Below, piece after piece: positions 861 through 1,566 of a DNA stretch of 64,000 bases; position 1 is the first letter of the stretch; every line of letters begins with the position of its first letter. The stretch lies in NCBI RefSeq assembly GCF_003991155.1, contig NZ_CP031293.1; one strand, written 5' to 3'. This DNA is from Escherichia coli (lineage in GTDB: Bacteria; Pseudomonadota; Gammaproteobacteria; Enterobacterales; Enterobacteriaceae). The notes under the pieces are model-generated. The model was not told the DNA's origin. It was given only the letters and a program-made list of their open reading frames with translations, and searched no databases. The translations under genes were made by a program, and so were the position numbers.

Positions 861-1247
861 ATGGGTGTGTATAAGGCAAGACGATTCAGCCAAAGCACGA
901 AAAAACTTGGTATTCACGATAAAGTTCTCATGGCTGCCGCTGAAGAAGTGATGCAGGGCATATGGGAAGCTGATTTAGGTAGCGGTGTCATCAAAAAACG
1001 TTTACCCCTCCAACAAGGAAAGAGTGGTGGAGCCAGAACAATTATCTTTTTTAAATCAGCAAATCATGTGTTTTTTTATGATGGTTGGTCCAGGAGTGGT
1101 CTAAGCAGTAAAGGAACCAAAGAAATCGAAGATGATGAACTGGCGGCCTACAAAAAAATGGCAAATGCATTTCTGGCCTTTAGCAATAAGCAAATAGAGG
1201 ATTTGATCGAAACTGGCTTTTTGATTGAGGTGAAAAATGAGCGATAA
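861..1247 (+). CDS. RelE/ParE-superfamily toxin, HigB-2-like (DUF1044-type), 128 aa
   Basis: Translation carries a GKSGGAR...IIFF core that I recognise as typical of HigB-2/DUF1044 toxins; it precedes and overlaps the partner gene by 11 nt; good SD. Family assignment is from memory, not a search. Confidence 0.7.
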   Translation: MGVYKARRFSQSTKKLGIHDKVLMAAAEEVMQGIWEADLGSGVIKKRLPLQQGKSGGARTIIFFKSANHVFFYDGWSRSGLSSKGTKEIEDDELAAYKKMANAFLAFSNKQIEDLIETGFLIEVKNER

Positions 1248-1566
1248 ATTACAAATGATGCTGGAAGATGCAAAGGAACTGAATGCACTGGGCCTGATGT
1301 CTGATAGTGAAGTTGATGCCATTGCCGTCATGGTCAAAGCTCGTGAAGTCAGCGCCCGTATAGCCAAAGTCAAATCAATGACGGGTGAAGAGATCAAAGC
1401 CATCCGCACCCGATACGGCATGTCACAATCCGTGCTGGCACATACAATGGGAATGTCAAAAGAAAGTGTCTCGAAATGGGAACGTAATGAAATAAAACCG
1501 AGCGGCCCGGCATTACGTATTTTGAATACATTGGCAATAAAAGGGCCGGAAGTTTTTGCAAAGTAA
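1237..1566 (+). CDS. XRE-type helix-turn-helix antitoxin, HigA-2-like, 109 aa (N-terminal neutralising segment plus C-terminal HTH)
   Basis: C-terminal IKAIRTRYGMSQSVLAHTMGMSKESVSKWERNEIKPSGPALRIL is a classic XRE HTH; the toxin-first order with overlap is typical of higBA modules. Confidence 0.7.
   Translation: MSDKLQMMLEDAKELNALGLMSDSEVDAIAVMVKAREVSARIAKVKSMTGEEIKAIRTRYGMSQSVLAHTMGMSKESVSKWERNEIKPSGPALRILNTLAIKGPEVFAK

Follow-up and report, generated by a model that had tools for sequence, protein, structure and literature searches.

Background

Among the described toxin-antitoxin systems, HigB-2/HigA-2 of Vibrio cholerae (VCA0468/VCA0469; PDB 5JA8, 5JAA, 5J9I and 8A0X) and ToxP/AntitoxP of the Coxiella burnetii plasmid QpH1 (CBUA0028/CBUA0027) come closest to the Escherichia coli gene pair presented here. 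The V. cholerae toxin HigB-2 (Q9KMA6; VcHigB2) belongs to the Pfam family PF06296 (PMC11980606), and its catalytic residues are K49, R51, R64, Y82 and K84 (PMC5416850; PMC10098735). The footprinted operator of the cognate antitoxin, VcHigA2, begins immediately downstream of the -35 box and spans the -10 box (PMC11006873). The Coxiella toxin was found to be toxic and to inhibit translation, its antitoxin rescues the cells, and the own promoter of the pair is bound (PMC10098735). In the searchable literature, queried by protein accession and by Sakai and EDL933 locus tags, no study of the E. coli module was found. The locus tag Z1062 is that of bssR.

A toxin-first gene pair between rimO and dgcI

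The E. coli module is very probably a type II toxin-antitoxin operon, located in the chromosome and belonging to the HigB-2/HigA-2 (PF06296) family. This assignment is directly supported by the gene structure, by family membership in both sequence and fold, by conservation of the pair, by a conserved palindrome that overlaps the promoter, by purifying selection and by an accessory distribution. Positions given below are those of the 64-kb stretch of DNA analysed, which we call the window.

642-1635, plus strand: accessory segment of about 994 bp, delimited by alignment of filled and empty sites
861-1247, plus strand: toxin gene, 128 aa, WP_000539524.1, PF06296/HigB-2-type, RelE/ParE superfamily
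1237-1566, plus strand: antitoxin gene, 109 aa, WP_001280945.1, XRE-HTH

The two open reading frames overlap by 11 nt (1237-1247), and PGAP calls the identical two coding sequences in a strain whose sequence shows 100% identity to window positions 600-1700, in exact agreement with the two overlapping genes of the initial annotation. The module is an ordinary two-gene toxin-antitoxin pair that is annotated already: RefSeq labels it as a RelE/ParE-family toxin and an HTH partner, and in the O157:H7 Sakai record ECs_5400 is an 'addiction module toxin RelE', with ECs_5399. Its neighbours are rimO, dgcI, pdeI and gsi. The adjoining dgcI is frameshifted in this strain.

Compared with K-12, the window is collinear over positions 1-641 and from 1637 onward, whereas 642-1636 has no counterpart. 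The gap between dgcI and rimO in K-12 is 46 bp long and holds neither gene, in line with the initial annotation. The accessory segment stands in place of the unalignable core, of about 40 bp, of this 46-bp spacer of K-12-type genomes. The segment had also been described as an AT-rich islet. This holds against rimO (41.4% versus 53.9% G+C) but not against the other side, since dgcI (43.5%) and pdeI (41.2%) are equally AT-rich; the islet thus contrasts with one flank only, and AT-richness extends across both of these genes.

The toxin

The toxin aligns with PF06296 over its whole length (residues 1-124 with model positions 1-120 of 120; E 4.8e-32, 111 bits). This is its sole significant Pfam match, and the same family is present in all 69 homologues having precomputed Pfam data. 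The canonical HigB (PF05015/PF09907) and K-12 RelE/ParE (PF05016) toxins were rejected, as none of these profiles matched. No NCBIfam model matches or names the protein. Because phmmer against PDB sequences returned nothing at E<=1, a profile from 20 homologues was needed to reach HigB-2; this profile retrieved HigB-2 chains of V. cholerae only (E about 1e-4). With the AF2 model of the toxin (pLDDT 85), VcHigB2 filled the top 7 Foldseek matches in the PDB (probability 0.99-1.0, TM 0.45-0.58), so that the modelled fold appears moderately, not closely, similar to VcHigB2. The initial assignment to the HigB-2 type of the RelE/ParE superfamily is upheld by the full-length Pfam match, and VcHigB2 is the only solved relative found by profile and fold.

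In the alignment of active sites, K49, R51, R64, Y82 and K84 of VcHigB2 correspond to K45, R47, R59, W76 and residue 78, respectively. K45, R47 and R59 are invariant in the 86 loci compared, and position 76 is aromatic throughout the family (F, W or Y; W here). Four of the five VcHigB2 active-site residues are thus matched, and the fifth, at position 78, is a conservative substitution in this allele. Both genes are under purifying selection. The dN/dS of the toxin is 0.04-0.08 in E. coli comparisons with at least 5 synonymous differences, the number taken as informative, and the antitoxin genes of the five E. coli strains compared encode the identical protein and differ at synonymous sites only.

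An arginine at catalytic position 78

1092-1094, plus strand: codon 78 of the toxin gene, AGG (Arg), located by allele alignment

All remaining E. coli alleles examined have lysine at position 78, as do 85 of the 85 other related loci. Among 209 database relatives the position is occupied by K in 204, by a gap in 3, by H in 1 and by R in 1, which is this same allele. Residue 78 aligns with Lys84 of VcHigB2 and with the catalytic Lys79 of Coxiella ToxP. The K84A substitution in VcHigB2 lowers activity about 3000-fold (PMC5416850), and K79E in ToxP abolished toxicity in E. coli, a result reported as data not shown (PMC10098735). Given such losses at a near-invariant lysine, this allele could be weakened. 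However, the change from lysine to arginine keeps the charge, and the structurally equivalent catalytic residue of E. coli RelE is Arg81 (PMC5416850), so the arginine may still work. With K78R placed at the main catalytic lysine, the potency of the toxin of this strain is uncertain. The K78R allele (WP_000539524.1) has nonetheless spread within a lineage of E. coli. At least 1000 contigs carry it, and of the 735 complete genomes that a 61-nt probe with codon 78 at its centre matched, about 50 have it. Plainly broken toxins occur in other E. coli lineages: the P0013 allele lacks 24 aa of the catalytic core through an in-frame deletion (23 contigs), and the P0025 allele is frameshifted.

It is conceivable, and we propose it only tentatively, that the K78R toxin is a natural HigB-2 variant of lowered potency or changed kinetics that is maintained by selection. 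If true, the allele would offer a natural experiment in the taming of chromosomal toxin-antitoxin modules without deletion, and it would show whether an arginine can serve as general acid/base in PF06296 toxins, as in E. coli RelE. The R78 allele and the common K78 allele, represented by WP_000539521.1, form a ready natural pair for the study of toxin attenuation. It is rather unlikely that the locus is a decayed remnant, in which K78R disarms or strongly weakens the toxin and the pair survives chiefly as an HTH repressor that controls its own synthesis, beside a harmless partner. The near-invariance of the lysine and the effects of the VcHigB2 and ToxP mutations would fit such decay, as would the broken toxins of other lineages and the frameshifted dgcI next door. 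Against it stand the retained positive charge with the RelE precedent, a reading frame that is otherwise intact, the abundance of the allele and the purifying selection on both genes.

Distribution and age of the module

The module was found in 1128 of 5426 complete E. coli genomes, i.e. about a fifth. Carriers include O157:H7 Sakai/EDL933, the commensal HS and an APEC O78:H4 strain. As K-12 and about 79% of complete E. coli genomes lack it, the module is accessory, in line with the initial annotation. Copies of the module differ by at most 1.5%, comparable to the adjacent core genes rimO and gsiD. Orthologues with 66-73% toxin identity are located at the equivalent place, convergent with gsiD, in UBA5654, a genus related to Kluyvera, and in Kluyvera sichuanensis; their upstream neighbour is rimO in the former and bssR in the latter. 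The genome scan found the module in no Escherichia species representative, yet Kluyvera and UBA5654 have it at the same site. Core-like divergence, wide carriage and syntenic orthologues together argue that this is not a recent insertion. They point to an old, patchily retained resident of the interval or to an old presence/absence polymorphism. Either a gain or a loss may underlie the present distribution. Of the strain-specific insertion proposed initially, the accessory character therefore stands, whereas strain specificity and recency do not.

The patchy accessory distribution could also suit another role. With the same biochemistry, the module might act in anti-phage abortive infection and not in stress response or stabilisation of the locus. 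Relatives are found on plasmids (205 records) and, at just 6 loci, on viral contigs, and a recent review counts RelE/ParE toxins among defence modules (PMC11980606). Such a role nevertheless seems improbable to us: PADLOC gives no defence model for the toxin and generic HTH models only for the antitoxin, and rimO, dgcI, pdeI and gsi do not form a defence island.

The antitoxin and conservation of the pair

The antitoxin consists of an N-terminal helix (residues ~2-17), a second helix (~23-41) and a C-terminal XRE-HTH domain (~48-107). Residues 53-94 match the Pfam family HTH_3 (E 3.4e-9). By phmmer against the PDB, chains of the P22 C2 repressor come first (E 9e-6), followed by V. cholerae HigA-2 (5jaa/5j9i; residues 47-106, E 6e-4), and controller proteins are likewise among the matches. 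A fused toxin-linker-antitoxin AF2 model (pTM 0.76), which is read as per-residue confidence and per-domain fold matches, gave VcHigA2 as best fold match of the C-terminal domain (TM 0.81-0.83, rmsd 1.1-2.0 A). The C-terminal XRE HTH attributed to the partner protein is thereby recovered from the HTH_3 profile and from sequence and fold matches to HigA-2. In the same model the N-terminal helix has a pLDDT of 94-97. A12, L15 and G19 are conserved in this helix in at least 80% of sequences. Two other family names were rejected for this protein, namely MqsA (TIGR03830, 47.1 bits, under the cut-off of 61.8 and over the C-terminal HTH part only; no cysteine) and NadS (NF041265, 36.7 bits, under the curated equivalog cut-off of 60).

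In 93 of the 95 related loci a same-strand antitoxin homologue directly follows the toxin, with overlaps in the family mostly of 4-38 nt, and this co-occurrence spans several bacterial phyla. In the present locus the ribosome-binding site of the antitoxin gene is located inside the toxin gene.

1227-1232, plus strand: Shine-Dalgarno sequence GAGGTG of the antitoxin gene, within the 3' end of the toxin gene and 4 nt before the ATG at 1237, read from the sequence

This internal site and the overlapping layout would be compatible with translational coupling. That there is no toxin-antitoxin pair here, ORF2 being a phage-type Cro/CI or restriction-modification controller-like repressor and ORF1 an unrelated small protein, is highly improbable and these two readings were rejected, for although P22 C2 outranks HigA-2 by phmmer and controller proteins are matched, ORF1 is confidently a PF06296 protein with a HigB-2 fold, the genes are almost always paired, the C-terminal domain of ORF2 is closest in fold to HigA2, and neither phage nor restriction-modification genes flank the pair.

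Promoter, putative operator and hairpins

809-836, plus strand: candidate sigma-70-type promoter, TTGAAA, 16 nt, TATAGT, with 10 of 12 consensus matches in a promoter scan
820-845, no strand assigned: 26-bp palindrome, GTAATGGTTACTA followed directly by TAGTAAACATTAC, with 13-nt arms, no spacer and the -10 hexamer at its centre
850-854, plus strand: Shine-Dalgarno-like AAGGA, 6 nt before the start codon of the toxin gene, read from the sequence

An equivalent -35/-10 spacing can be read upstream of the Kluyvera and UBA5654 orthologues. The palindrome is single-copy in the window, and 100 shuffles gave 0 matches with up to 3 mismatches allowed. Most of the enterobacterial orthologues listed carry its core TTACTATAGTAA, together with the outer GTAAT/ATTAC arms, 13-30 nt before the toxin start, while the DNA around it is unalignable among them. 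As the core is conserved in other genera, the palindrome is likely an autorepression operator, presumably for an antitoxin dimer. Its position agrees with that of the footprinted VcHigA2 operator.

Both stem-loops that had been noted on either side of the genes were confirmed by inverted-repeat search and RNA folding.

645-682, plus strand: stem-loop 3' of the rimO stop (635), 15-nt arms, -16.2 kcal/mol, z -3.0
1595-1622, no strand assigned: stem-loop flanked by the stop codons of the antitoxin gene (1566) and of the convergent dgcI (1636), perfect 12-bp stem, 4-nt loop

The first is a probable terminator or 3'-end stabiliser of rimO, and its outer stem AGGCAG...CTGCCT is similar to the hairpin of the empty allele (-26.2 kcal/mol). 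The second folds on both strands (plus strand -17.7 kcal/mol, z -5.4; minus strand -19.3 kcal/mol, z -4.4) and probably constitutes a two-way transcript end, though without a U-tract. A scan for intrinsic terminators, in which a T-run is required, flagged neither hairpin because neither has one. Rfam gave no RNA family at E<=1 for positions 500-1800.

Proposed mechanism and significance

By analogy with V. cholerae HigBA2 and Coxiella ToxP/AntitoxP, we infer RNase activity, neutralisation, operator binding and lability of the antitoxin for the E. coli module. A single promoter (809-836) would drive a bicistronic toxin-first mRNA. The toxin would be a ribosome-dependent mRNA endonuclease of RelE fold, with an active site formed by K45, R47, R59, W76 and residue 78. 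The antitoxin, a predicted dimeric XRE-HTH protein, may neutralise it by folding its N-terminal segment onto the toxin, while its C-terminal domain would repress the operon by binding to the 26-bp palindrome that covers the -10 box. Once the antitoxin is gone, whether degraded by proteases or lost with the locus, the freed toxin could halt translation.

As PF06296 modules belong to a structurally and biochemically characterised family, the import of this analysis is mostly one of annotation accuracy. It replaces a generic RelE/ParE label with the more exact family name HigB-2/HigA-2 (PF06296), supplies a concrete promoter and operator candidate, and turns a 'strain-specific insertion' into an old presence/absence polymorphism at a syntenic site.

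Comparison with known systems

MqsR/MqsA (E. coli K-12 ygiU/ygiT) is also toxin-first. The antitoxin gives weak matches to the C-terminal part of MqsA (TIGR03830 as above; PF15731, E 5e-4), the former being under the curated cut-off. Lacking any cysteine, the antitoxin cannot build the zinc-binding CxxC domain found at the N-terminus of MqsA, and the toxin gives no match to the MqsR family PF15723. The HigB-HigA pairs of Rts1 and K-12 (PF05015 or PF09907 toxins, TIGR02607 HigA) likewise combine toxin-first order, a RelE-superfamily toxin and an HTH antitoxin, but their toxins belong to other Pfam families, which are unmatched here. In addition, Rts1 HigA has no disordered toxin-binding arm and binds the toxin via its globular domain (PMC5416850).

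ToxP/AntitoxP of Coxiella is the closest experimentally studied relative, with 35% identity for the toxin and 33% for the antitoxin (E 2e-12), and its genes are overlapping and toxin-first, as here. It differs in being plasmid-borne with a role in plasmid maintenance, whereas the E. coli module is chromosomal. The Coxiella pair also represents a shorter subfamily, without the 5-residue insertion (SSKGT) of the toxin and the 8-residue insertion of the antitoxin.

HigB-2/HigA-2 of V. cholerae shares the toxin family PF06296 and the toxin-first order; no other solved relative was reached by profile, and both E. coli proteins have their best fold match in it. Identity is low, at 10-16% for the toxin (structural alignment) and 24-28% for the C-terminal domain of the antitoxin. 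The E. coli toxin is longer (128 versus about 110 aa), its model adding two C-terminal helices and a final strand. In its active site Tyr82 is replaced by Trp and, in this allele, Lys84 by Arg. Enterobacterial antitoxins have 8 extra residues in the linker helix (34-41). The V. cholerae module is located in the superintegron, while that of E. coli occupies an intergenic site of the core genome. The operator sequences differ as well, GTAAT..TTACTATAGTAA..ATTAC in E. coli against TGTACGC-N5-GCGTACA in V. cholerae, but each system has one inverted repeat located downstream of the -35 box and overlapping the -10 box, that of E. coli being a predicted operator. Finally, HigA-2 combines a toxin-binding N-terminal segment with a C-terminal XRE-HTH domain, and the E. 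coli antitoxin is built alike and, by analogy, would bind its toxin through the same segment.

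Gene pair and annotation

The islet between rimO and dgcI (642..1635) holds a bicistronic, toxin-first gene pair bracketed by stem-loops. The initial annotation had described two overlapping genes of 128 and 109 aa sharing 11 nt, flanked by hairpins; the six-frame ORF list returned exactly this arrangement and folding energies recovered both hairpins.

Features of the islet
645-682: stem-loop directly past the rimO stop codon (-16.2 kcal/mol, z -3.0)
809-836: promoter candidate from the promoter scan (TTGAAA, 16 nt, TATAGT; 10/12 matches)
820-845: 26-bp palindrome GTAATGGTTACTA / TAGTAAACATTAC, centred on the -10 hexamer TATAGT
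861..1247, + strand: ORF1, toxin gene, ATG start, 128 aa
1227-1232, + strand: antitoxin Shine-Dalgarno sequence GAGGTG, preceding the ORF2 start within the end of the toxin gene
1237..1566, + strand: ORF2, antitoxin gene, ATG start, 109 aa
1595-1622: stem-loop with a perfect 12-bp stem between the ORF2 stop and the convergent dgcI stop (-17.7 kcal/mol, z -5.4)

In strain 2016C-3878, 100% identical to window 600-1700, PGAP calls the identical two CDS, the first as 'type II toxin-antitoxin system RelE/ParE family toxin' (WP_000539524.1), the second as 'helix-turn-helix domain-containing protein' (WP_001280945.1). The O157:H7 Sakai record carries the pair as ECs_5399/ECs_5400, labelled 'addiction module toxin RelE'. 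'Toxin HigB-2 / Antitoxin HigA-2', which may or may not be this locus, is listed by name among the accessory genes of an E. coli pan-genome study (PMC10304320). Systems of this kind are known, and public records already annotate the pair. Literature searches turned up no publication on the E. coli locus itself.

Identity of the toxin and the antitoxin

The first ORF had been proposed to encode a DUF1044/HigB-2-type toxin, and it does match the Pfam family PF06296, previously called DUF1044, over its full length (E 4.8e-32). V. cholerae HigB-2 (VcHigB2, Q9KMA6) is assigned to the same family in a recent classification of the RelE/ParE superfamily (PMC11980606). As a single sequence ORF1 is too diverged to reach any PDB chain with phmmer. 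A profile of 20 homologues matched five distinct PDB sequences, all HigB-2 (E about 1e-4; entries 5JA8, 5JA9, 5JAA, 8A0X, 5MJE and 9TV9). In a Foldseek search of the PDB with an AlphaFold2 model built from the same alignment (mean pLDDT 85.4), the top seven hits were VcHigB2 chains (probability 0.99-1.0, TM 0.45-0.58), with YafQ, HP0894, Mtb HigB1, RelE and ParE ranking lower at much weaker scores. Family profiles placed the pair neither in canonical HigBA nor with K-12 RelBE.

The predicted C-terminal XRE helix-turn-helix of ORF2 was likewise found, as a match to HTH_3 (residues 53-94, E 3.4e-9), and the protein matches V. cholerae HigA-2 (VcHigA2) directly (5JAA/5J9I, E 6e-4, residues 47-106 against 38-96). 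When the antitoxin part of a fused toxin-linker-antitoxin model (overall pTM 0.76) was compared with known structures, VcHigA2 chains matched best; the C-terminal domain of the antitoxin superposes on them with TM 0.81-0.83 and rmsd 1.1-2.0 Å. The N-terminal helix (residues 2-17) has a pLDDT of 94-97 in this model, as we would expect if it packs on the toxin. An assignment of ORF2 to MqsA fails on score (TIGR03830, 47.1 bits against a cut-off of 61.8) and on the lack of any cysteine, which leaves no zinc finger, so that the pair falls outside MqsRA. As NadS, ORF2 scores 36.7 bits against a cut-off of 60.

Candidate operator, translation and proposed mechanism

The palindrome at 820-845 lies over the -10 box. 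It occurs once in the 64-kb window, and no match with up to three mismatches was found in 100 shuffles. Its core TTACTATAGTAA, together with the outer arms GTAAT/ATTAC, reappears 13-30 nt 5' of the toxin start in orthologues from Kluyvera, UBA5654, Siccibacter, Photorhabdus, Xenorhabdus, Proteus, Providencia, Morganella, Pantoea and Enterobacter. The surrounding DNA cannot be aligned between genera, yet core and arms are kept. More distant family members have other palindromes at the equivalent position. The layout relative to the -35 and -10 boxes is the same as that of the footprinted VcHigA2 operator, a single inverted repeat extending from after the -35 box across the -10 box (PMC11006873).

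The antitoxin start has GAGGTG, whereas the toxin start is preceded by a weaker AAGGA, which fits translational coupling with synthesis of excess antitoxin. From characterised relatives, the toxin is predicted to be a ribosome-dependent mRNA endonuclease, which the N-terminal arm of the antitoxin would inactivate by folding onto it. The antitoxin dimer, alone or with the toxin, would repress the promoter at the palindrome, and loss of the antitoxin would free the toxin.

Distribution and history of the islet

As stated initially, the interval is short in K-12: in MG1655 only 46 bp separate the dgcI and rimO stop codons, and the toxin-antitoxin (TA) genes are absent. At least 80% of the islet is present in 1128 of 5426 complete E. 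coli genomes, and some match in 1138. All 22 records listed with an empty site span an identical 147 bp of the query flanks, and the one such site that was read in detail has one strong hairpin (-26.2 kcal/mol). This makes the module accessory, as had been supposed. It is not, however, the strain-specific insertion that had been suggested, for O157:H7 Sakai, EDL933, the commensal HS and an APEC O78:H4 strain carry it.

The islet was also thought to be AT-richer than its neighbours. This holds against rimO (41.4% versus 53.9% G+C) but not against dgcI (43.5%) or pdeI (41.2%). Because these two genes are equally AT-rich, the AT-rich block is not the islet alone but 642-5480 (41.7% G+C overall), covering islet, dgcI and pdeI and ending at gsiD; the gsi operon has 53.4%.

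In the same strains, divergence from the window is 0.3-1.5% for the islet, 0.6-1.4% for rimO and 0.8-1.9% for gsiD. Two islet haplotypes, Sakai/HS and window/APEC/MLI108K3, are about 1.5% apart. Differences between copies are almost all synonymous, and both genes are under purifying selection: informative toxin comparisons show 5-6 synonymous codon changes and only 0-2 non-synonymous ones (dN/dS 0.04-0.08), and of the antitoxin changes, up to 4 per comparison, none is non-synonymous. The closest orthologues of other genera sit at the equivalent chromosomal place.

Gene order at orthologous loci
Enterobacteriaceae bacterium UBA5654 (toxin 73%): bssR, rimO, one extra ORF, TA pair, gsiD-gsiC-gsiB
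Kluyvera sichuanensis (toxin 66%): bssR, TA pair, gsiD-gsiC-gsiB
K. georgiana (toxin 72%): PTS genes, TA pair, gsiD-gsiC-gsiB

Core-like divergence and syntenic orthologues favour long residence in the rimO-gsi interval, with loss or replacement in most E. coli, over a recent insertion. Against this, the genome scan found the module in no representative of another Escherichia species, so that either gain or loss may lie behind the pattern. In the three loci listed pdeI and dgcI are absent from the TA site; since the pair adjoins gsiD there without them, pdeI-dgcI may itself be a lineage-specific acquisition. The extra UBA5654 ORF (316 aa, L018 2738-3688), between rimO and the TA orthologue, indicates that the gene content of this interval varies in other genera too.

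In the window a 1-nt indel breaks dgcI (1636-2953, - strand) into two ORFs, 1636..2727 and 2660..2953; it is one intact 1329-nt gene in 5/5 other strains compared and 'frameshifted' according to PGAP in the strain 100% identical over window 600-1700. It is the most divergent gene nearby (95.6-96.9% identity to other strains). PGAP also flags internal stops in yliI of the HS record (L100 2789-3904) and in pdeI of APEC E14033 (L101 8273-10621). Some E. coli toxin alleles are degraded: P0013 (23 contigs) has lost 24 aa in frame, including the catalytic core strands, P0025 is frameshifted, and in P0016 both ends are scrambled. Chromosomal toxin genes typically decay in this way. In a 'Collinsella sp.' MAG, a 1.2-kb contig (JAIJJM010000872.1) matches the E. 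coli TA islet at 99% identity and includes part of dgcI, whose product is 97% identical in amino acids to K-12 DgcI; the contig is almost certainly contaminating E. coli DNA in an actinobacterial bin.

Active site and the K78R allele

VcHigB2 activity needs Arg51, Arg64, Tyr82 and Lys84, and K84A is the most damaging substitution, by about 3000-fold (Hadzi et al., PMC5416850); Lys49 was added to this set by the Coxiella study (PMC10098735). In the profile alignment Lys49, Arg51, Arg64, Tyr82 and Lys84 correspond to K45, R47, R59, W76 and residue 78. K45, K46, R47, K54 and R59 are invariant in 86 distinct loci, of which 85 have F, W or Y at position 76. Position 78 is K in 85/86, the window protein (R) being the sole exception, and in 209 further database relatives it is K in 204, a gap in 3, H in 1 and R in 1, this last being the window allele itself. 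It is the only R78 among about 295 family members sampled.

All other E. coli alleles examined, Sakai included, have K78. The allele of HS, the APEC O78 strain and MLI108K3 (WP_000539521.1) differs from the window toxin by one codon. K78R is a single transition, AAG to AGG, at codon 78 (1092-1094). It is not an assembly error, and the allele is common in E. coli: 1000 contigs or more encode the exact protein, and 50 complete genomes contain the exact 61-mer that surrounds the codon. Residue 78 aligns with Lys79 of ToxP, the Coxiella burnetii QpH1 toxin, of which a spontaneous K79E mutant was reported to be non-toxic in E. coli (data not shown in PMC10098735). The structurally equivalent catalytic residue of E. 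coli RelE is an arginine, Arg81 (PMC5416850), so by analogy K78R may be tolerated. This allele is the only feature of the locus that could repay experiment.

Other variable segments of the window

A 1277-bp insertion relative to K-12 (20641-21917; K-12 857641/857642, ybiT-ybiU interval) carries the gene for an RNA-guided transposase of the IS110 family (326 aa; 20745..21725, - strand), which scores 252 bits with NF033542 (cut-off 140). Insertion size and transposase length resemble those of IS621. Between dinG and rhlE, the place of the K-12 ybiA region is taken by a second accessory TA module (46356-47277), with a 93-aa RelE/StbE-family toxin (46427..46708, - strand; TIGR02385, 38.3 bits, cut-off 27.9) and an upstream 146-aa partner (46708..47148, - strand) whose N-terminal region is ParC-like and whose C-terminus resembles RelB antitoxins (47.1 bits, slightly below the cut-off, 50). 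At about 33819-33828 the window lacks some 150 bp of the K-12 ybiO-glnQ intergenic region (K-12 845588-845741).

Comparison with known systems

The pairing is conserved across the family. We sampled 95 ORFs homologous to the toxin, drawn from the window and E. coli records, Kluyvera-orthologue contigs, six viral contigs and 80 species-representative genomes; 93 have an ORF2 homologue downstream on the same strand (mostly 100-117 aa), the overlap being usually 4-38 nt. Hosts range from Enterobacterales and Legionellales through Omnitrophota and Verrucomicrobiota to a cyanobacterial relative (Obscuribacterales). The toxin family comprises 2481 representative clusters (50% identity) matching at E<=1e-3, and 205 plasmid records hold relatives. 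The PF06296 match, the HigB-2 profile and fold matches, the HigA-2 match and this pairing together uphold the original reading of a toxin-first HigB-2/HigA-2-like module.

The closest relative with experimental data is the QpH1 plasmid pair ToxP/AntitoxP (toxin 35%, antitoxin 33% identical), in which the toxin is toxic and inhibits translation, the antitoxin rescues, and the pair's own promoter is bound (PMC10098735). The closest known system is V. cholerae HigBA2, of which the E. coli pair has, at the sequence level, all the defining features, except that the fifth catalytic residue is Arg instead of Lys in this allele.
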